Source: an uncultured Bacteroidota bacterium (GTDB lineage: Bacteria; CLD3; SB21). Taken from it: a stretch of DNA of 64,000 bases. The stretch's first letter is position 1. Each line of letters begins with the position of its first letter. The notes under the pieces were generated by a model, which was not told the origin of the DNA, did no database searches, and saw nothing but the letters and a program-made list of their open reading frames with translations. Below, one piece after another: positions 32,464 through 58,892 of the stretch. The DNA lies in NCBI GenBank assembly GCA_964563165.1, contig CAZLWA010000048.1:10086-74085 (forward strand), read 5' to 3'. Position numbers and translations under genes: made by a program.

Positions 32464-32658
32464 TAGTATTTTCTTTGAACAAATTCTGCCGTTAATCAAG
32501 AAATTGATTGGTTTGCGGCCTTCGATTTTCTTCCCGGATCAGTAGGAAGACAATGCCCGCACGGCCCAACAGGGAGGCGTGACCGCCGAGATCACGGTCG
32601 TAGCCCCCTTTTAAAGAGCCTGTCCCAAGTTTGTCGAGGAGGATTCGCTGGATTGAGT

Positions 32659-34104
32659 TTATTTGTACAAACGCGTTGTTACTTCAGTTGACTTTTTTAC
32701 GGTCTTCATTTTTCGTCTTATCAATATCACAACGATTACAATCAGCCCGAATACGGACGTCGCTATCCAGAGCGCGCCTCTTAAGGGCCGTTGTTTTTTC
32801 TCGGCCATCTTGGCAGAATAAATTTGATAAACATCCGGGAAGAGGGCCCCATGTTCATCGATCCATTGGCCATTAATAAGGCTTGCATTAACATCTACTG
32901 AATCCAATTCAACAAAAGCGCTGTCAGATTCGGCAGACCTCCAGCTATATTCGTGTACTTTCCCCGAATAGGTGTTCTCCTTAAGATGTCCTCTGAAAGC
33001 CTCATTTCGTTTCATCCATATGATCTTATTTGTCACAATAACGGGAATTTTGTCGCTCGCCACAAGATGACACAGTACCCGTAATTTAAATTCGTCACCC
33101 TCTTCAAAATCTCTTCGCGCAGTATCCGCAGGGTTGACTTCGACTTCATTTGCTTCGAATATCATCCAGGACGAGTCCAGCGATTGATCGGTACCTGATC
33201 CGTGAATGATGCTTTTATTCAAATAAACGTCAAATTCACTTTGATTGATCACATCCGGAATTGTATCTGAGATCAGATCCGACCGTCTCACAACAAATAT
33301 CGGTAACGTAAACCGGTTTTGCTTCACGTTTTCTAAAAGAGACATCCCCAAAGGCGATGAAAATCCTGCGTAAACTTTACGGCCCTTGGCCGGATAATTT
33401 CTGAGTATAACGTACCGATGGAATTCATGCAAGTTACTGACAACAAACTCTACGTTTCTTGGAAACTCACTGAATCTCGCGTAAACTGGCCATTCCCTTG
33501 AATTGATTTTCTTTATTACCCATGAGCCTTGTTCCTTTGTTAATCGGACTTCGTCATGGATATCGCGTACAAAAGCAGACACAAACCTCTCGTTTCCATT
33601 TGTCGTGTAATCTTTTTCAGAATACGGGAAAGGCACATCCCATAGGACGGGCTGCAATTGGGCGTCTCCCAGAACCATACTGTCGAGCGTACTCCAGTCA
33701 TAGGAAGCATCTTCTTGCTTCTTCCGTAAGTCTCGAAACTTGCTTTTGTTAATAAGAAACAGTGATTCCCTGAAATAGAGCTTTTTGTCCTCAATTATTT
33801 TAAATCCAGTCCGAAATTCATCGAAGCTCATTCGAATCTTTGTTTTGCACAACAAAAAGAAACCCGGGTAGGACTCTAAGTTGACTATCGTTGTCGATCC
33901 ACCAGATCTACGATAGCCACGCGGCGGCTCAGGTAAGACCAAGGCATCCAGCCAGCCTCCCAGCGCAAATGAAGAAGCAAGAATCAATATCACAATAATC
34001 ATTTTTTTCATAACGGTAATTCCGCGTTTGCAGTTTTTCTTCTCATCAAAATTCCAATCCCCAAGCACACCGCGCTCACGATTGTGAGCGTCGGGAACCA
34101 CCAC
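32659..34104 (-). CDS. Hypothetical exported or membrane-anchored protein (about 450 aa; the true start is probably 34011, MKKMIIVILILASS…)
   Basis: N-terminal signal/TM segment, a large soluble domain and a C-terminal TM anchor (ALWIATSVFGLIVIVVILI). With the start at 34011 it overlaps the downstream membrane-protein gene by 4 bp. Confidence 0.55.
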   Translation of the reverse strand: MVVPDAHNRERGVLGDWNFDEKKNCKRGITVMKKMIIVILILASSFALGGWLDALVLPEPPRGYRRSGGSTTIVNLESYPGFFLLCKTKIRMSFDEFRTGFKIIEDKKLYFRESLFLINKSKFRDLRKKQEDASYDWSTLDSMVLGDAQLQPVLWDVPFPYSEKDYTTNGNERFVSAFVRDIHDEVRLTKEQGSWVIKKINSREWPVYARFSEFPRNVEFVVSNLHEFHRYVILRNYPAKGRKVYAGFSSPLGMSLLENVKQNRFTLPIFVVRRSDLISDTIPDVINQSEFDVYLNKSIIHGSGTDQSLDSSWMIFEANEVEVNPADTARRDFEEGDEFKLRVLCHLVASDKIPVIVTNKIIWMKRNEAFRGHLKENTYSGKVHEYSWRSAESDSAFVELDSVDVNASLINGQWIDEHGALFPDVYQIYSAKMAEKKQRPLRGALWIATSVFGLIVIVVILIRRKMKTVKKSTEVTTRLYK

Positions 34105-35045
34105 ATTTCCCGCATCGACACTTCAAACGCGCCGGGCATTCCGCCTGCGGCAATGCCGAGCCCCAGCACAAGCCCCGAAGCGGTCGCGGGATACTTTGGC
34201 ATTAGCCGGCCCATCGCGGTCAATATAATAGGCGTCGATGCTTGTAAACATAAAATTCCTGTCAAGAAGGCGAGACGGAATTCCTGTCCGAAAAGCAGCA
34301 AAGGCGCCGACAGAATCAGCGATCCCATTCCTACGTACCGCCATGAAATTTTATCCGATAGAAATCCGCCGAGCAATTTACCGCTCGCCGCCGCGATCGC
34401 CATTTCGATCAAGAGATCCGACTCGCCCGATAATATAGCCTGAAAGGTCGTCCACACGAGCGAGCGAAATGCAATCGCCGCAAGAAGAAGGATCATCACC
34501 AGATCATGTCGTTCTAGTATCGGTTCATCCCGCTTAGAATCCGCCGACGCTTCGGGCGTTTTTACGAAAAATAAAATGGTACCTGCAATCAACAGTAAGA
34601 TCGTCAAATAGACGATCGCATTAAAGCCCTGAATTGCCAAAAGCCCGCCGATGGCAAGCCCGATCACACCCGGTGCGGCAAAGAGTCCTGCGCCCGTCTG
34701 CTTTTTTTCCGGCATCGCTATCGCCAGCGCTCCGCCGCTCACATGGAAGAGCGCGCTCGCCAGTCCCGCGCACGTCGCCGCGGCATATAAATTAACACTC
34801 GCGATCCAAAGCGCTCCCGCCATCAGGATCATAGCGCCCACCACGCTTTTGCGCGATATACTCAAAAGATCCACGGCATAACCCACCAGCGGCTGTGCGC
34901 CAAACGCGAGCGCATTATAGATCAAGAACAATTCCGCCGCATGACGCCAGTCCTGCGCCGCATAGAATCCCAGAAGCCAGCCCGCCGATCCGTCGGACAC
35001 CGCATGCGCGAGCCCGAGTAAAAGCGGAAGTCGTAATGTTTTCAT
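34008..35045 (-). CDS. Polytopic membrane protein with about 12 TM, MFS-like putative transporter
   Basis: 345 aa and roughly 12 hydrophobic helices with short loops. Confidence 0.55.
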   Translation of the reverse strand: MKTLRLPLLLGLAHAVSDGSAGWLLGFYAAQDWRHAAELFLIYNALAFGAQPLVGYAVDLLSISRKSVVGAMILMAGALWIASVNLYAAATCAGLASALFHVSGGALAIAMPEKKQTGAGLFAAPGVIGLAIGGLLAIQGFNAIVYLTILLLIAGTILFFVKTPEASADSKRDEPILERHDLVMILLLAAIAFRSLVWTTFQAILSGESDLLIEMAIAAASGKLLGGFLSDKISWRYVGMGSLILSAPLLLFGQEFRLAFLTGILCLQASTPIILTAMGRLMPKYPATASGLVLGLGIAAGGMPGAFEVSMREMWWFPTLTIVSAVCLGIGILMRRKTANAELPL

Positions 35046-35134
35046 AACGATTCCCTATTTTTTAATTTTCTTCGAATGACTGCAAAATCGATCTCATTCT
35101 TTCGTCTCCCATATTTGGAGGTACAACTGAATTG

Positions 35135-35599
35135 TCAAAAAATAAAACTCATACTTGCCGTAATTCCATTGGCAGAAAATGAGATCCAGAATGCTCTTCG
35201 CCAGGATACTTCACACAGCATCCTGATTAGAAGCCATTCGACTAAGACAACACTGACTTCAATTATAAACAGCGACGGGAGATGATGGCCTATCGTTACC
35301 GGCGCGAAGAGATCGATCAAGGACCAATACCCGTGCACCGCGAGCGGCTGCGTGAAGGTATTGACTAAAATGCAATATCCGGCATGCACCAGCGGACGGC
35401 GGTGAAGCCAGATCATCCAAATCGCATACTCCACCGCGACCGTCAATCCCCACGCGATAAGTAAGGTCATATCCACGAGTCTCCTTGTGATACGTGAATT
35501 TTCTTGGCTAAATTTTGAAATTAGAAAAAATGACGCCGGGTCTGAGTCAAGACTTTTTTCTACCTCCTTGGAAAGGGGGTTAGGGGGATTTTTGTGCAT
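35135..35599 (-). CDS. Small membrane protein (the true start is probably 35470, MTLLIAWGL…)
   Basis: A hydrophobic core. The N-terminal 43 codons of the tracked ORF (MHKNPPNPLSK…) come from a repeat and the overlapping DUF559 gene region. Confidence 0.45.
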   Translation of the reverse strand: MHKNPPNPLSKEVEKSLDSDPASFFLISKFSQENSRITRRLVDMTLLIAWGLTVAVEYAIWMIWLHRRPLVHAGYCILVNTFTQPLAVHGYWSLIDLFAPVTIGHHLPSLFIIEVSVVLVEWLLIRMLCEVSWRRAFWISFSANGITASMSFIF

Positions 35600-35979
35600 G
35601 CTTGCACAAATGCCTCGATCGCCTGCAACACGCTATCCGTCTTATTTCGAACTTCGCCTTCTGTAAATCGCAAAACAGTCAATCCCATCGCTTCCAGATC
35701 CCGCTGCCTTGAAATGTCCTTTTCATATACTTCTTTAAGTCCATGACTGTAACCGTCAACCTCGATAACAATCTTCATCGCTTTGCAATAAAAATCAACT
35801 ACATATTTCCCCAGTGGTTTTTGACGATTGAACTGCAGGCCGAAACATTTTCTGCCGCTCAGGTATCTCCAAAGCAGTGCTTCACCCAATGTCGAATTTT
35901 TTCTCAGCTTGCGTGAAACTTTTTTGAGATTCTTGTTATACGGTACGGTCTCCATCAAGATATTTGTTTGTTCGTCCAA
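35560..35979 (-). CDS. DUF559 (Vsr-like, PD-(D/E)xK) endonuclease-domain protein
   Basis: The 139-aa protein has the conserved core YVVDFYCKAMKIVIEVDGYSH…R…VLRF. Its stop lies inside a family-1 repeat, and an inverted repeat copy lies immediately upstream. Confidence 0.75.
   Translation of the reverse strand: MDEQTNILMETVPYNKNLKKVSRKLRKNSTLGEALLWRYLSGRKCFGLQFNRQKPLGKYVVDFYCKAMKIVIEVDGYSHGLKEVYEKDISRQRDLEAMGLTVLRFTEGEVRNKTDSVLQAIEAFVQACTKIPLTPFPRR
35564..35590. repeat. Family-1 repeat copy (CCTCCTTGGAAAGGGGGTTAGGGGGATT) at the 3' end of the DUF559 gene
   Basis: Read from the sequence. Confidence 0.8.
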
Positions 35980-35982
35980 GTA

Positions 35983-36010
35983 ATCCCCCTAACCCCCTTT
36001 TCAAGGGGGA
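35983..36010. repeat. Family-1 repeat copy in inverted orientation (AATCCCCCTAACCCCCTTTTCAAGGGGGA) at the 5' end of the DUF559 gene
   Basis: It is the reverse complement of the consensus CCCCCTTGAAAAGGGGGTTAGGGGGATT. Confidence 0.8.
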
Positions 36011-36014
36011 AAAG

Positions 36015-37475
36015 TCACGGCTGCATATACGTCGTCTTTACCGTTGTATAAAATTCCGCGGCGTAACGCCCCTGCTCACGGCTGCCGTAGCTGGAACCTT
36101 TTCGTCCGCCGAACGGCACGTGATAATCAATGCCCGCCGTCGGCAGATTGATCATCACCATACCTGCTTGCGCGTGCTGTTTGAAATGATGCGCCAATTT
36201 CAATGACGTCGTGCAGATTCCTGAAGTCAATCCGAACGGCGTATCGTTCGCGATTGCCAAAGCTTCGTCATAATTTTTTACGCGGATCACACTCGCGACA
36301 GGCCCGAAAATCTCTTCGCGATTAATTTTCATTTGCGCATGCGTCTCAGTGAATAGCGCAGGCGCCATATAAAATCCTTCTTTATCGCGTTTTAATCGTT
36401 CGCCGCCGAAAACTAATTTTGCATTCTCTTTTTTCCCGATCTCGATATATTCGAGATTCTTTGAAAGCTGATCCTGATCGACCACCGGCCCGATATCCGT
36501 TCCTTTTGCAAGCGCATCGTCAATTCTAAGAACTTTTAATTTTTCAACAACCGCTTTAACAAAATGATCGTGAATGCCTTCCGTTACAATTAGCCGGCTC
36601 GATGCCGTGCAGCGCTGGCCGGTCTGGAAGAAAGCGCCTTGTACCGCACAATTCACCGCGACTTCCAGATCCGCGTCATCTACGATCACCAGCGGATTTT
36701 TTCCTCCCATTTCCAATTGGACTTTTCCCATACGTTGCGCGCATTGGGCGGCAATTTTCCTTCCGACCTCGACACTGCCCGTAAAGCTTACTCCGGCAAT
36801 GTCCGCATGATTGACCATCGCCTGTCCGGCCGTTTCTCCCCGGCCCATGACCAAATTGAATATCCCTTTCGGCAAACCCGATCGGGAAATAATCTCGGCC
36901 AGCGCCCAGGCGCATCCCGGAGCAAGTTCCGCCGGTTTCAAGATCACCGCATTCCCGAACGCCAAAGCCGGTGCCGTTTTCCAGGCAGGTATCGCCATCG
37001 GAAAATTCCATGGGGTCAGGAGCCCGACCACACCGATGGGTTCGCGTACGACATCCACAATAACATTGGGACGGACGGACGGCTGATAATCGCCGGAATT
37101 GCGCAGCGCTTCGCCCGCAAAAAATTTAAAGATATTTCCCGCGCGGTTAACTTCCCCGATCCCCTCGGGCAAAGTTTTTCCTTCTTCCCGGGAAAGCAAT
37201 TTTCCTAATTCATCCTGCCGTGCCAGAATTTCCGTTCCGATAAAATCCAAAATATTGAATCGCTGCTGCGGGGTGCTCTGCGCCCAACCCGGAAATGCGG
37301 ACCGGGCGGACTTCACCGCCGTGTCGACATGCGATGCATTGCCTTCGGCATACTCGCCGACCACATCGTGAATATCCGAAGGATTGATATCCGGCTGCAC
37401 AGCCGAACCGTCAATCCATTCCCCGTTGATGAATAATTTTTTTGTTTCCATTCGAATCCCTTCATGGTTTTGCAA
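36015..37475 (-). CDS. NAD(P)-dependent aldehyde dehydrogenase; candidate alpha-ketoglutarate semialdehyde dehydrogenase
   Basis: 486-aa ALDH fold with catalytic Cys in QRCTASSR and Glu in LEMGGKNP. Confidence 0.8.
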   Translation of the reverse strand: MQNHEGIRMETKKLFINGEWIDGSAVQPDINPSDIHDVVGEYAEGNASHVDTAVKSARSAFPGWAQSTPQQRFNILDFIGTEILARQDELGKLLSREEGKTLPEGIGEVNRAGNIFKFFAGEALRNSGDYQPSVRPNVIVDVVREPIGVVGLLTPWNFPMAIPAWKTAPALAFGNAVILKPAELAPGCAWALAEIISRSGLPKGIFNLVMGRGETAGQAMVNHADIAGVSFTGSVEVGRKIAAQCAQRMGKVQLEMGGKNPLVIVDDADLEVAVNCAVQGAFFQTGQRCTASSRLIVTEGIHDHFVKAVVEKLKVLRIDDALAKGTDIGPVVDQDQLSKNLEYIEIGKKENAKLVFGGERLKRDKEGFYMAPALFTETHAQMKINREEIFGPVASVIRVKNYDEALAIANDTPFGLTSGICTTSLKLAHHFKQHAQAGMVMINLPTAGIDYHVPFGGRKGSSYGSREQGRYAAEFYTTVKTTYMQP

Positions 37476-37538
37476 CGACCACCCCGCCCTCCTCAGGTCT
37501 GGCGCAGGACACCCCTCCTTGACAGGAGGAGAATATTA

Positions 37539-38561
37539 CTATAGTACAGGCCTGGTCGCCAAAGCTTTTTTCACAATTTCTTCAACTTGTTTTCTTTCCT
37601 CGCCGATCAACGGCAGACGCGGCGCGCGCACCGTTTCCGAACCCACGCCCACCAGGGCTTCCACGAGTTTAATATTTTGCACGAACTTAATGGATACATC
37701 CAAATGCAGCAGCGGCATGAACCAGCGATACAGTTTCACCGCTTCCTCAGTTCGATTGGTTTTCACCAATTGATACAAGGCAACCGTTTCTTTCGGAAAA
37801 GCGCACACCAAACCCGCGAGCCAACCCGACGCGCCAAGAATTAAACTTTCCATCGCCAGATCGTCAACACCGGAAAAAATCTGATAACGATTACCGACCT
37901 GATTGATAATGTCGGTCAAGCGCCGGATATTGTCCGAGGATTCCTTGATAGCAACAAATTTCGGCTCATCGGCTAATTCCGCAAACATATCCGGCGTAAT
38001 ATCCACGCGATACGCGACCGGATTATTGTAGATCATGATAGGCCGATCCGTCGCCGCAGCCACCGCCCGCAGATGCGCGATCGTTTCACGCCGGTCAGAA
38101 ACGTATTGCATCCCGGGCAGAACCATAAAACCGTCCGCGCCCAACTTCGCAGCGTTTTCAGTAAATTTACATGCGCCGGCCGTGGTCGTTTCCGCCACGC
38201 AGGACAAGACCGGAACTTTTCCTTTCGCAGCGCCGACCGCGGTTTTCAGCACATCCAATTTTTCTTCGGCCGTCAGCGTCCCGTTCTCTCCGAGCGAACC
38301 CAGCATGACTAATCCGTTTACGCCGGCATCCAATTGAAATTGGATATGCTTCTCGATCGCCGGAAAATCGATCGAGTAATCTTTTTTGAATTTCGTCGTC
38401 AACGCGGGAAAGATCCCGCTCCAATTTGTTTTCATTTTCAAATCCTTTTGTGTTATGCGCGCATAGAATCCCCCGCCGGAGCCTGCCCTGAGCAGGTCCT
38501 TCGTTTCGCTCAGGATAAACTTCGGAGCGCCCCCTTTAATCCCCCCCGCCGGAGCCTGCAC
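37539..38561 (-). CDS. Dihydrodipicolinate synthase-family lyase; candidate delta1-pyrroline-4-hydroxy-2-carboxylate deaminase. The true start is probably 38435.
   Basis: DapA/NAL-family Schiff-base lysine in VAIKESS and GxxGE motifs. The first 42 codons (MQAPAGGIKGG…) are translated from a family-1 repeat. Confidence 0.75.
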   Translation of the reverse strand: MQAPAGGIKGGAPKFILSETKDLLRAGSGGGFYARITQKDLKMKTNWSGIFPALTTKFKKDYSIDFPAIEKHIQFQLDAGVNGLVMLGSLGENGTLTAEEKLDVLKTAVGAAKGKVPVLSCVAETTTAGACKFTENAAKLGADGFMVLPGMQYVSDRRETIAHLRAVAAATDRPIMIYNNPVAYRVDITPDMFAELADEPKFVAIKESSDNIRRLTDIINQVGNRYQIFSGVDDLAMESLILGASGWLAGLVCAFPKETVALYQLVKTNRTEEAVKLYRWFMPLLHLDVSIKFVQNIKLVEALVGVGSETVRAPRLPLIGEERKQVEEIVKKALATRPVL

Positions 38562-38613
38562 TGAGCATCGCGAAGTGGCGCCCCCCTTTATTAAAGGGGG
38601 GTTCGGGGGGATT
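38467..38613. repeat. Family-1 long-variant repeat cluster (AATCCCCCGCCGGAGCCTG…CTTTATTAAAGGGGGGTTCGGGGGGATT)
   Basis: Termini AATCCCCC and GGGGGGATT, with internal hairpins CCTGAGC…GCTCAGG and CCCCCCTTTATTAAAGGGGGG. Confidence 0.8.
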
Positions 38614-45429: not shown

Positions 45430-45706
45430 AAATCCTCCGTTAGTTTGATGGGTTCAGATAACGTTAAGGAACACTGTATAAGCCGAACAGGTACTCGAGA
45501 ATGCGGCCCGCGTGGATGCGGTCCGTTAGGATCTGACAGGAAGATTACAAATTACACGTGTGCAAAAGCCGGCACTGATAAGAAAACCGGCATAGATGGC
45601 AAAACGAATACGAATGCCCGAAACTCAGGTGAGTGATGGGTCCTTCGAAGACCTTCAAGAAGCTACACACTCAATTTATTTTTTGCAAGAGAAAATTAAA
45701 ATTTAA

Positions 45707-45853
45707 TAATCCCTTTTAATCCCCGCCGGAACCTGACCTGAGTTCTTCCACTTCACTCAGGATAAACTCCGTCGAAAGGGCACCCACCTTTGGTAAAGGA
45801 GGGACATGGGAATTCGGTTTTCTGCCCCCTTGAAAAGGGGGTTAGGGGGATTT
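45707..45853. repeat. Family-1 repeat cluster (long variant plus canonical copy)
   Basis: AATCCCTTTTAATCCCCGCCGGAACCTGACCTGAG…GCCCCCTTGAAAAGGGGGTTAGGGGGATT. Confidence 0.8.
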
Positions 45854-45891
45854 TTGTTTTTCCCCAATATTGAAGAAGGTTCAGGGGAATC

Positions 45892-46704
45892 CTAATGCTT
45901 GAAGGCTTCCAGCGTTGTTGTTGTTCTATAGGGATTCCGGAAAAAATCTTCCAGGATCATATTGAACCAGTCCGGACGTTCGTACGCCCCGCCGTGCGTG
46001 GAACCCGGCATCACAAAAAGAAAGCCCTGCGGTATATTTTTGAATATCTCGGCCGAATGCTCGATCTGGATCGCGTCACGGTCTCCCATCATCACGAGAA
46101 ACGGCGCACGTATCTTGTGAAGGTCGGAAACGGGAATATGCGGTTCATAGATCAGCAAATGCATCAGTTGTTTTTCTTTCTTATTGGTGGATGCTTTCTC
46201 GACCTGTTCGGCAAAATGCAGCAGTTCAGCAACTACCGCTGTCGTATCCGGCCGTAAATTAGTTCCGAAGCCTGCCGCTTTGCGGACTTTATTAGGATAA
46301 TGTATGGAAAGCAATAGCGCCAATATCCCGCCGTCGCTTTGACCCCAGATGTACGCCGAATCGATCTTCAATGTGTCCAGAAGATCGTTAATATCTTTCG
46401 CCATCATTTCATAATTGAGTACGGAAGTGGAGTCGATCGATTTCCCGTGTGCGCGGCTGTCGATCGCAATGACTTTATATTTCTTCGAAAAATAATCTAT
46501 GCGATTTCGCTGATTGCCGATCGAACCGCCGTTACCGTGCAGCAAGACGAGCGGCGCACCTTCGCCGTAGATCTCATAGTACATCCTGATCCCATTGACC
46601 GAAACATATTTTCCCGCTTTCGGATTATTGCCGTACGGCGTCTGTGAAAAAGATATCCCATTTGCGATCAAAAATAAGAATAGAAAACAGCTGACTCGTT
46701 TCAT
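45892..46704 (-). CDS. Secreted alpha/beta hydrolase
   Basis: Signal peptide, nucleophile elbow GQSDGG, and an HG oxyanion motif (LLHGNGGS). Confidence 0.75.
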   Translation of the reverse strand: MKRVSCFLFLFLIANGISFSQTPYGNNPKAGKYVSVNGIRMYYEIYGEGAPLVLLHGNGGSIGNQRNRIDYFSKKYKVIAIDSRAHGKSIDSTSVLNYEMMAKDINDLLDTLKIDSAYIWGQSDGGILALLLSIHYPNKVRKAAGFGTNLRPDTTAVVAELLHFAEQVEKASTNKKEKQLMHLLIYEPHIPVSDLHKIRAPFLVMMGDRDAIQIEHSAEIFKNIPQGFLFVMPGSTHGGAYERPDWFNMILEDFFRNPYRTTTTLEAFKH

Positions 46705-46768
46705 ACAGATTTCTCCAAAACAATTAATGGTTGAAAATGATTTTAATACGCAAGGAGTTAGAGAATGT

Positions 46769-46944
46769 TCTGTTTTCTTCCCCCTTGAAAAGGGGGTTAG
46801 GGGGATTATTTCCCGTCGGAGCTTGTCCTGGGCGCAGACGAAGGGGCGCCCTAAGAATCCCCCCGCTTCGCTCGCCCCCTTTAGTAAAGGGGGCTGATAA
46901 GATTCTGTTTTCTTCCCCCTTGAAAAGGGGGTTAGGGGGATTTC
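46769..46944. repeat. Two canonical family-1 copies (46769-46806 and 46906-46944) flanking a GC-rich variant segment
   Basis: TTCTTCCCCCTTGAAAAGGGGGTTAGGGGGATT occurs twice. Confidence 0.85.
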
Positions 46945-46958
46945 TTTTTCACTACTTG

Positions 46959-47225
46959 TTAATCATAATGAGTCCACATGCGCAAAATTTTCACGAAATG
47001 AATTTCTTTCAGAACCTGGTAAACAATGCGGTGTTGAATATTGATCCTGCGGGAGTAAGCTCCTAAGAGATCTCCCACGAGTTTTTCATAAGGCGGCGAA
47101 TTTCGGAATGGATTTTCTTCTAATATATCTAAAATGGATTCTGATTTGGGTTTCAAACCTGCTGCCGCCAGTTTTTTGGCGTCTTTCTGAGCTTGTTTGG
47201 TAAAACCAAGCCGCCATCTTACCAC
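46959..47225 (-). CDS. yoeB: YoeB/Txe-family type II toxin (mRNA interferase)
   Basis: 88 aa with C-terminal YSRRINIQHRIVYQV…HY that matches the YoeB signature. It overlaps the upstream antitoxin gene. Confidence 0.8.
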   Translation of the reverse strand: MVRWRLGFTKQAQKDAKKLAAAGLKPKSESILDILEENPFRNSPPYEKLVGDLLGAYSRRINIQHRIVYQVLKEIHFVKILRMWTHYD

Positions 47226-47455
47226 TTCAATTTCCTTGAGAGCTTCTGGACCGGAGTTTTCATGCCTTGCACGATAGATTTTTTCATACCCGGAATGGAG
47301 ATCAAAAACAATGTTTCCTGGATCGCGCGCCAGTCTTCTTCGGAAATGATCACGGCATTGCCGTGTTTGCCGGTGACGTAGATCGGCTCATTCGATACGT
47401 CATCGATCAGGTTGTATATGTTTTGACGAACTTTGCTGACGGTTAATGTTTTCAT
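47219..47455 (-). CDS. yefM: YefM/Phd-family antitoxin
   Basis: 78 aa: MKTLTVSKVRQNIYNLIDDVSNEPIYVTGKHGNAVIISEEDWRAIQETL. Confidence 0.8.
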   Translation of the reverse strand: MKTLTVSKVRQNIYNLIDDVSNEPIYVTGKHGNAVIISEEDWRAIQETLFLISIPGMKKSIVQGMKTPVQKLSRKLKW

Positions 47456-47542
47456 AATAAGTTCTTGCTTTCAGAAACGTACGTAATTACGTACGTAATA
47501 GCAAGTGAAAAAAAACCGAGACTAAGGAATTTCGGTTTTATT

Positions 47543-47716
47543 CCCCCTTGAAAAGAGCCTGTCCCGAGCTTGGCGAGGGAGGGTTAGGGGGATTATTACC
47601 CGCCTGAGCCAGCCTTGAGCGCAGCCGAAGGAGCGCCCCCCTTTGGTAAAGGGGGGACTTGGTAACAGACGATTTCTGAATTCCCCCCTTTATTAAAGGG
47701 GGGGTTCGGGGGGATT
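47543..47716. repeat. Composite family-1 repeat. It is a canonical copy with the CCTGAGC-type motif inserted into its hairpin loop, plus a long-variant copy.
   Basis: CCCCCTTGAAAAG-AGCCTGTCCCGAGCTTGGCGAGG-GAGGGTTAGGGGGATT … CCCCCCTTTGGTAAAGGGGGG…CCCCCCTTTATTAAAGGGGGGTTCGGGGGGATT. Confidence 0.8.
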
Positions 47717-48150
47717 CTTTTCTCGACTTCACTTTCGATCATCTTACAAACACCGTCAAATTCATGCAGCACTTCGTAATTGGTAAATCTCAAAACCTTC
47801 AATTTGTAAGCCTCAAGCACTTTCGTGCGGCCTTTGTCATAATCTTTTCCGTCGTCCGTATAATGGCTATCGCCATCCACTTCAATCACCAATTTCAGTT
47901 TAGCACAATAAAAATCTACAATATAATGATCGATGGGCTTTTGTCTCAGAACGGGAAATTTTAAATGCTTTAAAAAGCCATGCCAGAGTTTCTTCTCCGC
48001 CCGTGTCATGGTTCTCCTGAGAGTCCGCGCACGCTCCTTAAGCTTAGGATTGAAAGGCAAGTGATGGCCGGTGGTAATGAGGCCTTTGGCTTTGGCGTCG
48101 TTTTTCATTTCATAGGTTCCCTTTTTTAATCCCCCCGGCGGAGCCTGCAC
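47596..48150 (-). CDS. DUF559 (Vsr-like) endonuclease-domain protein. The core gene is about 47720-48105. Both termini of the tracked ORF are translated repeats.
   Basis: Core HYIVDFYCAKLKLVIEVDGDSH…VLRFTNYEV. The C-terminal tail PPNPPFNKGG… and the N-terminal MQAPPGGLKKG come from family-1 repeats. Confidence 0.75.
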   Translation of the reverse strand: MQAPPGGLKKGTYEMKNDAKAKGLITTGHHLPFNPKLKERARTLRRTMTRAEKKLWHGFLKHLKFPVLRQKPIDHYIVDFYCAKLKLVIEVDGDSHYTDDGKDYDKGRTKVLEAYKLKVLRFTNYEVLHEFDGVCKMIESEVEKRIPPNPPFNKGGNSEIVCYQVPPLPKGGAPSAALKAGSGG

Positions 48151-48246
48151 TGAGCATCGCGAAGTGGCGCCCCCCTTTGGTAAAGGGGGGACTTGGTAAC
48201 AGACGATTTCTGAATTCCCCTTTATTAAAGGGGGGTTCGGGGGGAT
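48128..48246. repeat. Family-1 long-variant copy (AATCCCCCCGGCGGAGCCTGCACTGAGC…GGGGGGTTCGGGGGGATT)
   Basis: About 95% identical to the copies at 47637-47716 and 48519-48597. Confidence 0.85.
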
Positions 48247-48273
48247 TCTCTTGGAGCACTCGAGGAGACCATC

Positions 48274-48462
48274 TTATTTTTTTAGCCAATTGGATAATCG
48301 CTGTTCAGCAGCTTGATGAGAAATGCCTTTGCCTTCGTCCAATTCTTTCAACCCCTGATCCACTTGCATTTTGAAATGAAGCTCTTCTATAATATCTTCA
48401 ACGGTCGAACTCTTGGGCATTTTCTTGATTATCTTAATGACGTGATCTTTTACTGCAGGCAT
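48274..48462 (-). CDS. Putative orphan addiction-module antitoxin (small coiled-coil protein)
   Basis: 62 aa: …STVEDIIEELHFKMQVDQGLKELDEGKGISHQAAEQRLSNWLKK. No cognate toxin is adjacent; a family-1 repeat lies where one would be expected. Confidence 0.5.
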   Translation of the reverse strand: MPAVKDHVIKIIKKMPKSSTVEDIIEELHFKMQVDQGLKELDEGKGISHQAAEQRLSNWLKK

Positions 48463-48497
48463 GCGTTCTCCTTAAAATGATATGCTGCCCCTCCCAA

Positions 48498-48597
48498 AAT
48501 CCCCCGCCTTCGGCGCCCCCCTTTGGTAAAGGGGGGACTTGGTAACAGACGATTTCTGAATTCCCCCCTTTTATTAAAGGGGGGTTCGGGGGGATTC
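48498..48597. repeat. Family-1 long-variant copy
   Basis: AATCCCCCGCCTTCGGCGCCCCCCTTTGGTAAAGGGGGGACTTGGTAACAGACGATTTCTGAATTCCCCCCTTTTATTAAAGGGGGGTTCGGGGGGATT. Confidence 0.85.
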
Positions 48598-49040
48598 TCC
48601 TGAGCGAGCGAAGCGAGTCGCAGGAGTCATTCCCACGAACGCGGGAATCTATTTCACATCCTCAAATCAGGCTAATTAGAGATTTTATTCCATTCTTTGA
48701 TGCGTCTGATCGCTTCACTAATTTGTTTTTCCAAATCTAATTGTCCAACTAGGTTTTGTTTCGTCAAGAACTTTGAAATTTTTGCGGCGAACAAAACTTT
48801 GTTTTGGAGAAACTTACTGCCTTCGTCTTTCCTGAATTATTTCTTCCAATAATAATATTAATAGGTAATATCGAATCAAATCCATGTTCAACTTCCTTGA
48901 AACATTTATGGTGTTTTAATTTTGATTGATGTCTTGTCTAACATTACTGATCTCTTCCAAATGCGAAAAAAGGCACAAAACCTTCCCATTTTCGGGACGT
49001 CTTGTGCCTTAAATTAAAATTACTTTTCTAATTCAGCTTT

Positions 49041-49156
49041 GCGTCCCCCTGACGCGGAAAATCCCCCGCCTTCGCGGAGCCTGTCCTGAGCGATAGCGAA
49101 GGGCTCAGGCCGCCCCCTTTATTAAAGGGGGCAAGCGCCGAAGGTGCTGGGGGATT
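49041..49156. repeat. Family-1 long-variant copy abutting the nrdJ stop
   Basis: AAAATCCCCCGCCTTCGCGGAGCCTGTCCTGAGCGATAGCGAAGGGCTCAGGCCGCCCCCTTTATTAAAGGGGGCAAG…GGGGGATT. Confidence 0.8.
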
Positions 49157-52100
49157 CTACGAGCACCCCATGCTATTCCCGCAGTTCAGGCATTTGTAGC
49201 ATGCGCCGTTGCGCACGGTCATATGCCCGCACACGTCGCACGCGGGTGCGTCGCCCATCATCTCGCTCAGATGTTTATCGAGTAAATTCTGCGAAGTTTC
49301 TTTCGGGGTCTCCGCGGGCGTATGGTCCACGACCGTCGGCGTAGCCGGGTCGTGCGATTCGCCGTTGAGCGTCGGCGGAATGTGAACGAAATCCATGCGC
49401 TTGAGATATTCCATGCCGAGCACGCGGAAAATAAAATCCAGTATCGAGGTCGCGTTTTTGATGTTCGGGTGATTCGTAAATCCGCTCGGCTCGAAGCGCG
49501 TGAATGTGAATTTCTCCACGAATTTGTCCAGCGGCACGCCGTACTGCAGTCCCATTGAGACCGCGACGGCAAAACAGTTGAGTAAACTGCGGTAGGCTGC
49601 GCCTTCTTTGAACATATCGATGAAGATCTCGCCGATCTGGTTGTCATCGTATTCTCCGGTGCGGAAATAAATTTTATGTCCGCCCATTTCGACTTCCTGC
49701 GTGAATCCCTGCCGTTTGTGCGGCATCGGTTTTTTCTGCCCGCGGCGTAATTCTCTGCCGGACTTTTCGATCGCGTCCTGAACGGCTTTATCCAATTGCG
49801 CTTGCGTGATCGTCATCTCGTCTTCGACCGATTCTTTGGAGGACGATTTATTGCTGAGCGGCTGGGAGAATTTCGATCCGTCGCGGTAGAGCGCCACGGC
49901 TTTGAGCCCGAGCTTCCAGCCTTCGAAATAAATGCGCTCGATATCTTTTACGGTCGCTTCCGAAGGAATATTTACCGTTTTGGAGATCGCACCGGAGAGG
50001 AACGGCTGAACCGCACCCATCATCTTCACGTGCCCCATCGGGTCGATGTAGCGTTTGCCGATACCGCATTTATTCGCGCAGTCGAACACCGCGAGATGTT
50101 CTTCTTTCATTAAGTGAGTTCCTTCCACGGTCTGCGCGCCGGCGATATAGATCACCGCGCGTGAGATCTGTTCACCGGAAAGGCCTTTTTGCTTCAGCGT
50201 CTTGATATTGATATGCGGCGTCCATTCGTCCAGCGATTTATTTTTATTGACGTAAGCTTCGGCTTCGGCAATTTCAGGATCCGTGAAACCCATTTGTTTC
50301 AGTTGTTCCGGATTCACATAGGGCGCACCGTCGAATGTGCCGTGGCCGAGAATGTATTTGATGATACCGTCGATCTCTTCTTTATTATATCCTAATTTGC
50401 CGAGCGATTGCGGAATGGAGCCGTTGACGATCTTGAAATATCCGCCGCCGGCTAATTTTTTCCATTTCACCAAAGAGAATTCCGGTTCGACGCCGGTCGT
50501 GTCGCAATCCATCAAAAGCCCGATCGTTCCCGTTGGGGCAAGCACCGTCGCCTGCGCATTGCGGTAACCGAACTGGCCGCCCATGGCCACGCAGGCGTCC
50601 CAGTCTTCGCGCGCCGCACGGACCAGGTCGTCCGGGCAAAATTCGTTACTGATTTTATAAGCCGCATCGCGGTGTTTGTTCATCACGCGCATCATCGGTT
50701 TTTCATTTTTCTTGTAGCCGGGAAAAGCGCCTTTGACGGAAGCCACCTCCGCGGAACCGCGGAATCCCCACGCATGCATGATCGCGGTGATCGCGCCGGC
50801 CCACGCTCTGCCTTCTTCGGAATCGTACGGAATGCCGTTGACCATCAATAGGGTCCCTAAATTCGCATAACCCAATCCGAGCGGGCGGTAATCGTGGCTG
50901 TTCTGCGCAATTTTCTGGGTCGGGTAGGAAGACATGTCCACGAGAATTTCCTGCGCGATAATGAACACGCGGCAGGCTTCGCGGAATCCTGCGATATCGA
51001 ATTTGCCGGATTCATCGGAACATTTCATCAAATTGACCGACGCGAGATTGCAGGCGGTATCGTCGAGGAACATATATTCCGAGCAGGGATTCGACGCGTG
51101 AATCTTGTCGGTCGACGGGCAGGTGTGCCAGTCATTGATCGTGTCGTCGAATTGAATGCCGGGATCGGCGCATGCCCATGCGGCGTAAGAAATTTGATCG
51201 AACAGATCGCGCGCTTTGTAGGTATCGATGACTTCGCCGGAAGTGCGCGACGTGGTTTTCCATTCGCCGTCGTCGAGAACGGCGTTCATGAATTTATCGG
51301 AAACGCGGACCGAGTTGTTGGAGTTTTGTCCGGAGACGGTTTGGTACGCTTCGCCGTTGAAATCGCTGTCGTATCCGGCGTCGATGAGGGCTTTGACTTT
51401 CTTTTCTTCTTTCACTTTCCAATTGATGAAATCCACGATCTCCGGGTGGTCCATATCGAGGCAGACCATTTTCGCCGCACGGCGCGTGGTGCCGCCGGAT
51501 TTGGTCGCACCCGCTCCGCGGTCCAGAACGCTCAGGAACGACATGAGGCCCGAGGACGTTCCTCCGCCGGAAAGTTTTTCCTGTTTGCCGCGCAAAGATG
51601 AAAAATTGCTGCCCGTGCCGGAACCGTATTTGAAAAGCCGGGCTTCGTTCTTGGCCAATTCAAAAATGCCCATCAGGTCGTCACTCACCGCCTGAATGAA
51701 GCACGCCGAGCATTGCGGATGTGAATACGAATCGGGGGTCATTTCGATGTTGCCTGTTTTAGGATTCCAAAAATAATTTCCGCCCGAACCTTCGATATGA
51801 TATTCCTGGGAAAGGCCGCAATTGAACCAGACCGGCGAATTGAATGCGCCCATTTGATTGACTAGCAGATGCGTGAGTTCCATTTCAAAGATCTCGGCAT
51901 CGTTCTTCGAATCGAAGTATCCTAATTTTTCACCTTCCGCCCGGATCGTATGCGCGACGCGATAGACCAATTGTTTGGCGCTCGTTTCATTGCCGGTTCC
52001 AGGTACTCCCGCTTTGCGGAAATATTTGGAGGCTGCGATGTCCGTAGCCAATTGCGACCAGCTTTTGGGGATATCGAGGTCCTTCATTTCGAAAACAACT

Positions 52101-53579: not shown

Positions 53580-53674
53580 TACATGTTTCCCCACGAAACA
53601 CACGAAAAAGGCACGAAAAATTTTAATGCAAAATACAAGTGATTGCCCGCGAAATACGCGAAACATGCGAAAAA
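53580..53674. repeat. Family-2 repeat array in CACGAAA orientation upstream of the GxxExxY gene
   Basis: CCCCACGAAACACACGAAAAAGGCACGAAAAA … TTGCCCGCGAAATACGCGAAACATGCGAAAAA. Confidence 0.8.
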
Positions 53675-54085
53675 ATGAATACAAAAAATATTGTCTTTGC
53701 TGAAGAAAGCTACAAAATCCTCGGGGCATGTTTCAATGTTTACAAAGCGAAAGGGTGCGGATTTTTAGAGGCAGTCTATCATGAATGCCTGCAAATAGAA
53801 TTTGAATTTCAGAAAATTCCTTTTGTATCCCAGAAGGAACTGGCAATAGAATATCGAGATCGGCTACTCAAACAAAACTACAAAGCCGATTTTATTTGTT
53901 TTGACAAGATCATCGTTGAAATAAAGGCGGCTTCCAAAATAATCGATGAACACCGGGCACAGGTATTGAATTATGTTAATGCGACAAATTCTAAACTCGG
54001 CATTTTGGTCAATTTCGGACATTATCCTAAATTGGAATACGAACGGTTTGCGTTGACTGAAAAAAAAGTTACAAAAACAGTTTAA
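53639..54085 (+). CDS. GxxExxY-family protein (PD-(D/E)xK-like). The true start is probably ATG at 53675.
   Basis: GCGFLEAVYHECLQIEF (the GxxExxY motif) and DFICFDKIIVEIK (a PD-(D/E)xK core). It is inserted between sdhC and sdhA and bracketed by inverted repeat arrays. Confidence 0.75.
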   Translation: MIAREIRETCEKMNTKNIVFAEESYKILGACFNVYKAKGCGFLEAVYHECLQIEFEFQKIPFVSQKELAIEYRDRLLKQNYKADFICFDKIIVEIKAASKIIDEHRAQVLNYVNATNSKLGILVNFGHYPKLEYERFALTEKKVTKTV

Positions 54086-54289
54086 AAACTTTTGCGCCTT
54101 TTCGCGTGTTTCGCGGGCAAATAGTTTCTGTGTTTCGTGGGAAAAAGTTTTCGCGTGTTTGGCGGTTTAATAGTTTTCGTGTCTTTTCGTGTTTTTCGTG
54201 GGAAAAGTTTTCGCGTATTTCGCGGGCTAAGTTTTTTTCGTGTCTTTCGTGGGGAAGTATTCTGCGGGCAAGCATAAGGAGAATGATAA
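54086..54289. repeat. Tandem array of about 7 copies of a degenerate 25-bp unit (GTTTTCGCGTGTTTCGCGGGCAAAT) in TTCGTG orientation
   Basis: Contiguous units are visible: GTTTTCGCGTGTTTCGCGGGCAAATA / GTTTCTGTGTTTCGTGGGAAAAA / GTTTTCGCGTGTTTGGCGGTTTAATA / GTTTTCGTGTCTTTTCGTGTTTTTCGTGGGAAAA / GTTTTCGCGTATTTCGCGGGCTAA / GTTTTTTTCGTGTCTTTCGTGGGGAA. Confidence 0.85.
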
Positions 54290-57149: not shown

Positions 57150-58892
57150 ATGTGGTATAAATTTATGAGAGATTTTAACATCAAAACCTTATTGATCGGC
57201 TTTTCCTTTTGGGCCATCGGGACAGCATCGCTTTTCTCCCAGCACGTCATTGCGGATCTGAAGAATTTCGAACCGGACAAGATCTACGTCAAGGGATTCA
57301 CGGTCAAGCGTACGTCCGCGATCGCCATCAATGCCGTCGGAGTGAAGGCGCAATCGCATAAGTGGAATCGCTGGAATCCGATGATCGCCTACGGATGGAT
57401 TTTGAACACCGATACGCATGAAGCCGTGTGGGCCATGTCTCCGGAAAATACGGGCAGGGCTTTGGGAACCAACAACCTTAAATTTGAAGGAACCCTGACG
57501 CTGGAACCGGGCAATTACGAAGCCTATTATTCCACTTACGGACAACGAATTATAAGAATTTCCAGGTCTGGAAGCTATCTCGGCGAATTTGTAAAGAATC
57601 TCGTGAAAGTGTTTGTCGAGGACGAGGATATATATGAAAACGCCGACCAATGGCATTTGAAGATCGTCACCAAGGATGGAGATAGTTTTGAAACTTTTGA
57701 CGGATCGAAATCCAAGAACGTTTTCGTGGATCTGACCGGCGCGCGCGACAGCGATTTCCTTGAAAAAGGATTTTCTGTTGATAAGAATATCAAAGTCAAA
57801 ATCTATTGCAACGGCGAAGGGCAGGACAGCCGGATGTTCGATTTCGGATGGATCACCAATGACAAGTCTGCCAAACAGGTTTGGGAAATGCGCTATGATA
57901 ATACGTCGTACGGCGGGGGTGCGGAAAAAAATCGCATATACGCCGGTATTATTACTCTGCCGGCAGGCGACTACATCGCAACGTATGTCACCGACGATTC
58001 GCATTCATTCAACGAATGGAATATGCAGCCGCCGTATGATCCTGCAAATTGGGGACTGTCCCTCAGCATCGTCGATGAAAACGATTTAACGTTCATCCGT
58101 GACTATAAAAAGGCCAAGAAACAGGAAATTCTGGCGATCACTAAAGTCAGCGATAATCAATTTCGTTCTGAAGGATTTTCGCTCTCCAAATCAACGGATA
58201 TTGTGATCTACTCGCTGGGTGAAGGACGCGACAGCCGCATGTACGATTACGGCTGGATTACCGATGCCAATACGGGGGAGACGGTTTGGCAGATGCGCTA
58301 CAGCGAAACTAAATTTGCCGGAGGGGATGAGAAAAACCGTTTGTTTGAAGGATCCATCACGCTGCCTCCGGGTAATTATATGGCTAATTACAGGACCGAC
58401 GGCTCGCATTCGTGCGAAGACTGGAATACCGATCCCCCGTACAACAAGAACAAATGGGGCATCACGCTGAGTTTGGCGAATAACAATGACACCAAGAACA
58501 TTTCAAAATACAGCGAGAGTGACGACCGGACGCTGTTGGCGCAGATTGTCCGCGTGGGTGACGATGAGTACCGTACCAGACCGTTCGCGTTGGAAAAAGA
58601 TTCCAAGATCCGGATCCTCTGTATCGGAGAAGGCAGGCACGGGCAAATGTATGACTACGGCTGGATCAAGAATACGGAGACGGGTCAAACGGTGTGGGAA
58701 ATGACCTTTGGTATGACGCGGCCTGCCGGCGGCGCCCAGAAAAACCGCATGCTTGACGGCACCGTTTTTTTGGAAGCAGGAAAATATGAAGTCACATTCA
58801 TCAGCGACGGTTCGCATTCATTCGAAGACTGGAACGACGATGCGCCGAATCAACCCGACAAGTGGGGCATTACGCTGAAGCTCGCGAAATAA
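57150..58892 (+). CDS. Secreted protein made of four tandem divergent repeats of about 130 aa of an unrecognised domain
   Basis: Signal peptide. Each repeat contains …IxxxGEGxDSRMYDYGWIxN…GxxVWxMxY…GGxxKNRxxxGxxxLxxGxYxxxYxxDxSHSxxxWNxxPPxxxxKWGxxLxL. Confidence 0.7.
   Translation: MWYKFMRDFNIKTLLIGFSFWAIGTASLFSQHVIADLKNFEPDKIYVKGFTVKRTSAIAINAVGVKAQSHKWNRWNPMIAYGWILNTDTHEAVWAMSPENTGRALGTNNLKFEGTLTLEPGNYEAYYSTYGQRIIRISRSGSYLGEFVKNLVKVFVEDEDIYENADQWHLKIVTKDGDSFETFDGSKSKNVFVDLTGARDSDFLEKGFSVDKNIKVKIYCNGEGQDSRMFDFGWITNDKSAKQVWEMRYDNTSYGGGAEKNRIYAGIITLPAGDYIATYVTDDSHSFNEWNMQPPYDPANWGLSLSIVDENDLTFIRDYKKAKKQEILAITKVSDNQFRSEGFSLSKSTDIVIYSLGEGRDSRMYDYGWITDANTGETVWQMRYSETKFAGGDEKNRLFEGSITLPPGNYMANYRTDGSHSCEDWNTDPPYNKNKWGITLSLANNNDTKNISKYSESDDRTLLAQIVRVGDDEYRTRPFALEKDSKIRILCIGEGRHGQMYDYGWIKNTETGQTVWEMTFGMTRPAGGAQKNRMLDGTVFLEAGKYEVTFISDGSHSFEDWNDDAPNQPDKWGITLKLAK

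Follow-up and report, generated by a model that had tools for sequence, protein, structure and literature searches.

We analysed a 64,000-nucleotide (nt) stretch of DNA from an uncultured Bacteroidota bacterium (contig CAZLWA010000048.1, hereafter the window), which carries two genes of the DUF559 family, DUF559-1 and DUF559-2. DUF559 is a very large protein family of unknown function that includes ycjD of E. coli K-12. Each of the two genes lies between short repeat units in inverted orientation, and the same arrangement is found beside DUF559 genes from many phyla. A unit consists of a C-run, a loop, a G-run, three bases, and a second G-run with an AT tag (C-G-G type), and its reverse complement is referred to as the C-C-G type. 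The genes and units at the two loci are as follows (aa, amino acids; CDS, coding sequence; ORF, open reading frame).

47596..48108, minus strand: DUF559-2 CDS, 170 aa, from the ORF list and Pfam PF04480; the ATG at 48108 is the likely start
47683..47716, minus strand: downstream unit of DUF559-2, variant B, C-C-G type, covering codons 132-142 (IPPNPPFNKGG); from the sequence and alignment
48128..48190, minus strand: upstream arm of DUF559-2, C-G-G type with a long second loop; from the sequence, alignment, and direct repeat family D10
35560..35955, minus strand: DUF559-1 CDS, 131 aa (Pfam E 8.5e-32), with its ATG at 35955 in ORF 35560-35979
35563..35590, minus strand: downstream arm of DUF559-1, variant A; inverted repeat I6
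35982..36009, minus strand: upstream arm of DUF559-1, variant A, ending 26 nt 5' of the ATG; inverted repeats I1, I2, I5, and I6

The original prediction placed the core of DUF559-2 on the minus strand between repeats and took the two proteins for paralogs, and both statements agree with the present analysis. The two copies score 109.7 and 102.5 bits against Pfam PF04480 (cut-off 20.6) over profile positions 2-108 of 109, and the two proteins are 42% identical. For DUF559-2, ORF 47596-48150 on the minus strand matches Pfam DUF559 with an E value of 1.5e-29, and the protein that starts from the ATG at 48108 is a 100% match to the called protein P0001 of the source contig. Exact-protein look-ups for P0001 and the Phd antitoxin returned no record. 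Residues 1-131 of DUF559-2 form the nuclease core, and Asp65 (the Asp of the DFY motif), Glu76 and Asp78 (ExD), and His82 are invariant across 39 sequences. In the AlphaFold2 model of DUF559-2 (mean pLDDT 87.9), the core exceeds 95, and the tail from residue 132 is a lower-confidence coil. The closest solved structures are PDB 3HRL (top) and the catalytic domain of the homing endonuclease I-Bth0305I. The model thus predicts an intact, restriction-endonuclease-like nuclease fold for DUF559-2.

The remaining 39 residues of DUF559-2 (132-170) are encoded by the downstream repeat, and the final nine codons of DUF559-1 (IPLTPFPRR) are also repeat-encoded. Repeat-encoded termini had been predicted for both proteins. 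Both genes indeed read into a repeat, and IPPNPPFNKGG is present in the called CDS, but the other predicted terminus, MQAPPGGLKKG, likewise repeat-encoded, is part of a GTG-extended ORF only, upstream of the likely ATG. Elsewhere in the window, ORFs 35135-35599 and 37539-38561 have N-terminal extensions (MHKNPPNPLSKE... and MQAPAGGIKGG...) that stem from repeat sequence. For annotation, many 'hypothetical proteins' and C-terminal extensions such as ...IPPNPPFxKGG... are read-through into these repeats.

On the plus strand, the left flank of DUF559-2 (47683-47716) reads CCCCCC-TTTATTAAA-GGGGGGG-TTC-GGGGGG-ATT, which corresponds to AATCCCCCC-GAA-CCCCCCC-TTTAATAAA-GGGGGG on the gene strand. The right flank starts at 48128 as AATCCCCCC-GGCGGAGCCTGCACTGAGC... 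and runs into the hairpin CCCCCCTTTGGTAAAGGGGGG at 48170-48190. On the gene strand, this upstream arm consists of CCCCCCTTTACCAAAGGGGGG, 33 nt, and GGGGGGATT, followed by 19 nt to the ATG, and it matches 38530-38601 with 89% identity (family D10). The upstream arm of DUF559-1 reads CCCCCTTGAAAAGGGGG-TTA-GGGGGATT on the gene strand, with its reverse complement on the other side of the gene, and the two arms (35563-35590 and 35982-36009) are 93% complementary (pair I6). Two variants are distinguished in these flanks. Variant A, with C5 runs, a TAA spacer, and the loop TTGAAAA, is located on both sides of DUF559-1, and variant B, with C6 runs, a GAA/TTC spacer, and the loop TTTATTAAA, is located downstream of DUF559-2. 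The upstream arm of DUF559-2 has the C6 runs of variant B but the loop TTTGGTAAA and a 33-nt insert between its G-runs. Of the claim that both genes share the same inverted-repeat flanks, the homology and inversion of the units therefore stand, whereas the variants differ (A and B) and one arm is interrupted by the insert. Alignment of the four flanks with four solo units gave one unit type in which the G-runs and the ATT tag are invariant, and the likeness of the flanks therefore exceeds the shared G/C runs that had been considered as a trivial explanation.

Recurrence of the flanks beside other DUF559 genes

The prediction that the flank geometry is not a coincidence is borne out by its recurrence in cyanobacteria, Calditrichaceae, Margulisiibacteriota, Chloroflexi, Geobacter, Neisseria, E. 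coli, and others. We compared 82 DUF559 loci, which comprise the two window copies and 80 genome loci from many phyla that are the best matches to one subfamily. The strict motif was defined as C-C-G starting within 150 nt after residue 120, or its reverse complement within 150 nt before residue 18. Beyond 400 nt from the gene, it occurs at a background of 0.06 per kilobase (kb). The downstream C-C-G was present in 48 of the 82 loci, the upstream C-G-G in 46, and both in 39, against ~0.7 loci expected, and in most cases the downstream motif begins precisely 24 or 48 nt past residue 120. When simple tags within 220 nt were counted, 64/82 loci were positive downstream, 64/82 upstream, and 52 on both sides (0.036 expected per locus). 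In 83 control ORFs from the same loci, the strict motif was found once downstream, never upstream, and never on both sides. Since these comparative statistics exclude coincidence, the idea that the flanks merely reflect a repeat-dense region is hardly credible.

The orientation of the units relative to the gene is also conserved. The unit closest to the gene is C-G-G in 47 of 57 loci on the upstream side and C-C-G in 49 of 52 on the downstream side. The opposite polarity, C-C-G upstream and C-G-G downstream, was found in L027 (Anaerolineales) and L252 (Deinococcus wulumuqiensis). This reversal would follow from an inversion of the gene segment between the arms and may relate to the 14-fold enrichment of 'DUF559 domain-containing protein' among predicted programmed-inversion targets (PMC9881135, Table 1). 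Both observations would suit an invertible switch, in which the ~30-nt inverted arms let the gene segment flip and turn its expression on or off. Such a switch is, in our judgment, very unlikely. Polarity is the same in ~85-95% of loci, so inversion must be rare; no invertase gene lies nearby; and the tandem arrays and solo units described below would be left unexplained.

In the comparative loci, the upstream unit is located 4-60 nt from the start codon, and the downstream unit overlaps the stop codon. In 16 of 34 loci, both arms carry the same loop, compared with 6.8% when arms from different loci are paired, indicating that the arms are kept alike in each locus. The cultured examples Citrifermentans bemidjiense Bem and Tolypothrix have perfect arms whose loops are exactly reverse-complementary. 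Homologs of DUF559-2 with 55-68% identity occur in cyanobacteria, Margulisiibacteriota, Chitinispirillaceae, and others, and very many of them end alike (IPPNPPF, IPPSPP, IPPTPLFKGG, or NPPFPPLIKGG). The same tails are found in a sizeable minority of the homologs of DUF559-1, which are mostly from Bacteroidota. Since the stop codons fall at varying places in the motif, the conserved feature is the DNA and not the peptide.

Nine distant loci, whose proteins are 33-45% identical to the window protein, were judged by eye without control genes, with the following results.

E. coli K-12 ycjD (L127, NC_000913.3, 1351039-1351760): the gene ends with ...SPSP and its stop codon inside CACCCTCTCCCTGAAAGAGCGAGGGGG; downstream only
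N. gonorrhoeae NGO0050 (homolog of PDB 3HRL): C-G-G upstream and C-C-G downstream
Picosynechococcus: inverted units on both sides
Sphingomonas: C-C-G + C-G-G doublet on both sides
Pseudanabaena: C-C-G + C-G-G doublet on both sides
Deinococcus: units on both sides with reversed polarity
Azospirillum: unit upstream only
Sinorhizobium: units downstream only
Photobacterium: units downstream only

The stems at these loci are lineage-specific (CCCTCCCC/GGGGAGGG and similar), and the association appears to extend across the DUF559 family, with the stem sequence changing with the nuclease lineage. In E. coli K-12, a tandem duplicate of the last ~50 nt of ycjD is followed by a TMECO-type unit, CCCCTCGCCCCTCTGGGGAGAGGGTTAGGGTGAGGGG, in the ycjD-fabI spacer. 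YcjD (NCBIfam NF007294) and NGO0050 (3HRL) are homologous to the window proteins over their full length (NF007294, E 1e-18 to 1e-23; 3HRL, E 7e-26), and triplex-type units adjoin both genes. On the other hand, their identity to the window proteins is 33-40%, the scores are under the equivalog cut-off, and their flanking stems are of the CCCTCTCCC type. Both are proteins of unknown function.

Unit architecture and units without a DUF559 gene

BoxC, PIT, and intrastrand-triplex-motif (TM) repeats have been described since the 1990s, and to our knowledge, no origin, function, or partner protein has been assigned to them. BoxC was reportedly first described beside envM (= fabI), and thus beside ycjD. 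The layout of the window units fits the published TM consensus, CCCTCNCCC-N3-6-GGGNGAGGG-N3-GGGNGAGGG (Holder et al. 2015, PMC4666352), and judged by their sequence, the units belong to the BoxC/PIT/TM repeats and do not constitute a private family, for all that the original prediction labeled them 'family 1'. They share with TM/BoxC the order of C-stem, loop, G-stem, 3-nt loop (often TTA), and mirror G-stem, the C-C-G form on the complementary strand, and the intergenic, multi-copy occurrence. TM/BoxC repeats are abundant in Enterobacteria, cyanobacteria, and Neisseria, which are groups with units beside DUF559 here; the reported copy numbers are 23 TMECO motifs in E. coli K-12, hundreds in cyanobacteria, and ~100 in N. 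gonorrhoeae (PMC4666352). In contrast to the published CCCTCNCCC stems, the window stems are homopolymers of C5-6/G5-6 extended by T/A. TM/BoxC loci show raised local instability, and neither transposase or integrase remnants nor a mobility gene was ever found near them (PMC4666352). An associated protein and the DUF559 bracket are not described in that paper, from which the word 'endonuclease' is absent. The repeats and the DUF559 family are thus each known, and we found no report of their association in the searchable literature, the coverage of which is incomplete, so that an earlier description is possible.

Because the two G-runs are mirror images, a unit is able to form a hairpin with an added third strand. 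Examples with three blocks are CCCCCCTTT-AAT-AAAGGGGGG-TTC-GGGGGGATT and CCCCCTT-GAA-AAGGGGG-TTA-GGGGGATT. In C6T3-AAT-A3G6-TTC-G6ATT, nine triplets are possible with the third block antiparallel (six of G on G.C, one of A on A.T, and two of T on A.T), and on our reading of the sequence such triplex pairing would account for the conserved AT(T/C) tag. Holder et al. formed the triplex in vitro from single strands and did not observe it in vivo (PMC4666352). Folding of the units as single-stranded DNA, which covers hairpin folding only, gave -24.9 kcal/mol (z -4.0) for 38538-38613, -30 kcal/mol (z -4.6) for 49060-49156, and z -3.7 for 46780-46942; over the four units folded, which were composite or complete, z ranged from -3.7 to -4.6. 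When a hairpin between the G-runs was tested for in general, the mean stem was 1.7 versus 1.25 in shuffles, many units being composite, and the small second hairpins CGCCGAAGGCG, TGACCGAAGGTC, and GTCCCGCAGGGAC are clear cases by eye only.

Within the 64 kb, the tags occur 10 times as GGGGGATT and seven times as AATCCCCC, all within 35.5-49.2 kb and at gene ends or in intergenic regions. The further units and composite repeats of this region are listed below.

38538..38613, minus strand: solo complete unit, AATCCCCCC to GGGGGGATT; the TAA of the DinB-family gene overlaps its tag
45720..45852, minus strand: composite unit 3' of the alpha/beta-hydrolase gene; families D1, D3, and D4, inverted repeat I5
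46780..46942, minus strand: gene-less units between the YoeB and hydrolase genes, with variant-A units at 46780-46807 and 46915-46942
47543..47594, minus strand: variant-A unit with a ~25-nt insert in its hairpin and the plus-strand end TTAGGGGGATT; from the sequence, families D13 and D15
47633..47718, minus strand: 86-nt composite direct repeat, copy a; family D5, three copies
48167..48252, minus strand: composite direct repeat, copy b, 86 nt; family D5; its variant-B unit (48217-48247) trails the 62-aa ORF
48274..48462, minus strand: 62-aa ORF from the ORF list, with no Pfam or NCBIfam match
48498..48598, minus strand: composite repeat, copy c; family D5, 95%
49060..49156, minus strand: solo complete unit immediately 3' of the class II ribonucleotide reductase (RNR) gene, whose TAG stop adjoins AATCCCCC

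The composite repeats are direct repeats of 86-120 nt (47633-47718, 48167-48252, and 48513-48598) that also frame DUF559-2 on the gene strand. In copy a, 26 nt separate the variant-B unit from a second hairpin, CCCCCCTTTGGTAAAGGGGGG (47636-47656), and copy c has the order variant-B unit, spacer, hairpin, CGCCGAAGGCG mini-hairpin, and GGGGATT. Adjoining copy c, positions 48600-48655 carry GAGCGAGCGAAGCGAGTCGCAGGAG and then TCATTCCCACGAACGCGGGAATC, the latter being a hairpin (ATTCCC...GGGAAT) of a kind that occurs dispersed in genomes of other phyla.

The complete units have inverted ends of 8-9 nt, AATCCCCCC and GGGGGGATT, and no transposase accompanies them. A second, partial unit is located at 38467-38537. 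C-tag units are found at or just after the stop codons of the RNR, DinB-family, YoeB, alpha/beta hydrolase, and 62-aa ORF genes, all on the minus strand, and a G-tag is also located 5' of the 62-aa ORF and the DHDPS-family gene. The 62-aa ORF is bracketed by GGGGATT 35 nt 5' of its ATG and AATCCCCCC 25 nt 3' of its stop, and the G-tag at 46800-46807 and the C-tag at 46856-46864 enclose just 48 nt, like an empty cassette. Since the same bracket surrounds the 62-aa ORF and the downstream unit adjoins the stops of unrelated genes, the geometry within the window alone does not single out DUF559, which the comparison across genomes does; for the window alone, a generic intergenic repeat explains the flanks equally well.

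These positions raise the question of whether the units are cis-acting parts of the DUF559 gene that travel with it (operator, 5' leader, or 3' stabilizer, for example). The solo units would then be decayed cassettes or unrelated structural DNA, and the nuclease would have another site of action, perhaps that of a solitary Vsr-like T:G mismatch endonuclease comparable to Caulobacter VsrA. DUF559 belongs to the same superfamily as Vsr, and a DUF559 protein has been tied to cytosine methylation damage in Caulobacter (PMC12907096). Moreover, a unit shortly before the start codon and another over the stop codon occupy typical regulatory positions, and many genes of the window have a unit at the 3' end, where mRNA-end structures would lie. 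Nevertheless, we consider a purely cis-acting role distinctly unlikely. Solo units far outnumber the genes, with 23 TMECO motifs per one ycjD (PMC4666352) and a DUF559 gene on only 1 of 39 motif-bearing viral contigs, and PIT elements showed neither promoter nor terminator activity, according to earlier work as cited in PMC4666352. The structural likeness of the window protein to Vsr is weak (Foldseek E 0.7), and no cytosine methyltransferase was noticed beside either copy among the scanned neighbors, which are a part of the window. The terminator-like matches in the window are on the strand opposite to these genes, and intrinsic terminators were rejected on this ground. At E <= 1, Rfam gave no match in 45600-49200.

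The island at 45.7-49.2 kb could also be viewed as an integron-like array with attC-like repeats, since small genes on the same strand (hydrolase, YoeB/Phd pair, DUF559, and 62-aa ORF) are split by imperfect palindromes in the same orientation, and GTTAGGG matches the attC R' box GTTRRRY at 6/7 positions. However, the R-box consensus is not attained by GTTAGGG or by GTTCGGG of variant B, and no recombinase family was detected among the 17 window proteins scanned with Pfam (genes at 31.3-48.5 kb). On these two grounds, the integron was rejected. In addition, these repeats keep their sequence from phylum to phylum, which attC sites do not, and units are also found behind the housekeeping genes RNR and DinB, which belong to no array. 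An integron-like origin is thus scarcely credible.

Around the DUF559 genes of other genomes, the units form polar tandem arrays, with C-G-G units upstream and C-C-G units downstream. The period of the upstream arrays is one unit plus the first ~35 nt of the gene, and that of the downstream arrays is often the last ~30 nt of the gene plus one unit; the duplicated 3' end of ycjD in E. coli K-12 is of this same type. Some arrays consist of a unit, a short remnant of the 5' and 3' ends of the gene, and another unit (L013 and L058). These are internal-deletion derivatives of the cassette, and 46780-46893 in the window is the same kind of object. A CRISPR-like array was rejected because the 'spacers' of the tandem arrays are themselves repeated.

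Most units are solo. In a viral-contig collection, 43 motif occurrences were found on 39 contigs, one of which carries a DUF559 gene, and no occurrence was directly 3' of a DUF559 gene. A plasmid collection gave no match at E 1e-15 and distant DUF559 genes alone at 1e-4, and the latter served as out-groups. One gene with many solo repeats is the expectation of a relationship like that of REP and RAYT. A metagenome scan for orthologous RNR 3' ends by means of a degenerate 36-nt pattern yielded 120 loci, which included no close relative of the window genome and no orthologous empty allele.

DUF559 as a candidate nuclease partner of the repeats

By analogy with RAYT and REP, DUF559 may be the cognate nuclease of the BoxC/PIT/TM repeats, and we hold the case for this reading to be evenly balanced. 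The gene lies between one unit, whose G-tag points towards the start codon, and the reverse complement of that unit, whose C-tag covers the stop codon. In the proposed cycle, DUF559 would recognize the units and cut at or beside them, most plausibly at folded or tag sequences, and host repair of the break would copy sequence from another unit. Such copying would homogenize the units, spread them, and occasionally spread the gene. Homogenized arms, gene-end fragments in arrays, mini-cassettes, tandem arrays, and solo units would be the outcome. In place of HUH transposition, the chemistry would be that of a PD-(D/E)XK nuclease combined with break-repair copying.

The likeness to the REP/REPIN-RAYT system lies in a gene of one or a few copies located between inverted hairpin repeats, short elements found elsewhere as dispersed extragenic copies, in a separate repeat variant for each gene paralog, and in doublets of inverted units. 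The two systems differ in that RAYTs (TnpA-REP) are HUH/Y1 single-stranded DNA transposases resembling IS200/IS605, whereas DUF559 is a PD-(D/E)XK nuclease and is not known to transfer strands. The repeats here do not carry the REP tags GTAG/CGTC, and the DUF559 gene reads into the repeat. If DUF559 is the partner of the repeats, an association of the REP-RAYT style between repeat and enzyme arose more than once, with different enzyme chemistry, and the puzzles of the BoxC repeats and of DUF559 both become testable in standard strains. A wider proposal, which we put forward tentatively and rate somewhat below even, is that DUF559 proteins, including YcjD and NGO0050, are the cognate structure- or sequence-specific nucleases of BoxC/PIT repeats throughout bacteria. 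They would constitute a second 'repeat plus resident nuclease' system independent of REPIN-RAYT and would be the cause of the reported local instability.

The same components could instead belong to a selfish homing gene. A free-standing DUF559 nuclease would cut the tag-tag palindrome, GGGGGGAT joined to ATCCCCCC, and be copied into the cut junction by repair, so that the gene splits its own target, and the repeats, present for reasons of their own, would be no more than landing pads and homology arms. The gene is located in neither an intron nor an intein but between two half-palindromic tags, exactly between a G-tag and a C-tag that would jointly form a palindrome. The closest solved structure of known function is the homing endonuclease I-Bth0305I (EDxHD/Vsr-like, PDB 3R3P), which shares the catalytic fold (hmmsearch E 2.4e-5, Foldseek E 7e-5) and is the nuclease of a selfish element. 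It differs in residing inside a group I intron and in its large N-terminal DNA-binding region; the window proteins are free-standing, have only a short conserved N-terminal helix, and are not encoded within another gene. The protein identity of 55-68% across phyla suggests horizontal transfer, and the gene-end fragments beside the units resemble aborted conversion tracts.

A further observation that suits homing comes from Tychonema bourrellyi (L043 and L051), in which a ~800-nt module of two upstream units, the gene, and one downstream unit is near-identical on two scaffolds with unrelated flanks. The ends of this module are a ~38-nt direct repeat and not units, with HIP1 sites at the ends (GCGATCGC-ACGTTTTGACTAATTCCAAAAGG-GCGATCGC). 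The ~38-nt sequence is another dispersed cyanobacterial repeat and may be a recombination site. These two copies in one genome are the one case that weakly suggests movement of the cassette as a discrete element.

On balance, homing seems unlikely to us. The gene is usually at one locus conserved among related species, as with the Nostocales protein P0086, which is on 11 contigs, most of them with the same neighborhood; against this single-copy, vertical pattern stand the two window copies, the two Tychonema copies, and the cross-phylum identity. Hardly any close relatives occur on plasmids and few on viral contigs, and short uninterrupted tag-to-tag junctions are present in gene-carrying genomes. 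In addition, the repeat stem changes with the nuclease lineage, which fits co-evolution better than opportunistic targeting.

Several observations also weigh against a cognate nuclease. The association, its polarity, the matching loops within a locus, the arrays with gene ends, the dispersed solo units, and the modeled intact nuclease fold were observed, whereas binding and cleavage of the repeats by DUF559, and spread by repair, are steps that we infer, and since a nuclease of 125-170 aa cannot transpose alone, the spread must rely on host repair, which is an assumption. Alignment of the two cassettes, which had been proposed as a way to delimit the element and its target-site duplications, gave none that could be defined, and no target-site duplication, precise element end, or cut site was recognized. 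The 80 genome loci may be related by descent if whole cassettes were transferred horizontally. Six of the 82 loci have neither tag, although three of them (L053, L059, and L069) carry variant motifs by eye, and L118 has units upstream only. In the window genome, units are also located at the ends of unrelated genes, where they may have a gene-independent role.

The E. coli data point both ways. Among 5,426 complete genomes, ycjD is present in 3,377 and absent from ~38%. In the ycjD-negative genomes, the sapF-fabI gap holds eefRABCD, in agreement with the report that eefRABCD replaces ycjD in phylogroups B2, D, E, F, and G (PMC12817139), and the negative state is therefore a replacement and not an empty site. 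In an evenly spaced sample of 60 genomes, BoxC-like places outside the ycjD locus had a median of 18 (10-26) in the 37 ycjD-positive genomes versus 5 (1-16) in the 23 ycjD-negative genomes (Mann-Whitney p = 7e-10), a difference that agrees with a cognate nuclease, but this correlation follows phylogroup and is thus confounded. Moreover, O157:H7 without ycjD has ~12 copies, indicating that the repeats persist in the absence of the gene, and two strains with a divergent (92%-identical) ycjD have 11-12.

Further features of the window

DUF559-1 is located within an apparent hydroxyproline-catabolism cluster at 31268-38561 (proline racemase family, MFS transporter, aldehyde dehydrogenase, and DHDPS family) and shares the strand of these genes. 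A perfect 20-nt palindrome, ACGTACGTAATTACGTACGT, at 47478-47497 lies just 5' of the Phd/YefM-YoeB pair (46959-47455, minus strand) and is probably the operator of this pair. When the whole window was searched with Rfam at the gathering score, the sole match was a selenocysteine tRNA gene at 18858-18953 on the plus strand (tRNA-Sec, 65 bits).

Two further repeat families were observed. One is based on TTGCCCGCGAAACACGCGAAA, is unrelated to the DUF559-flanking units, and occurs in direct and inverted orientation at 6626-6670, 53587-53680, 54090-54256, and 63477-63514 (D6, D11, I3, I12, I16, and I17), clustering around 53.6-54.3 kb. The other is the short repeat CCTTCGTGTCTTGGTGCCTTAGTGGC, with four copies at 7033-7058, 7862-7887, 24477-24502, and 63552-63577 (D9; inverted partner I10). 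Finally, an 84-nt direct repeat with 74% identity (58397-58480 and 58805-58888) is located inside ORF 57150-58892 and is probably a repeated protein domain.

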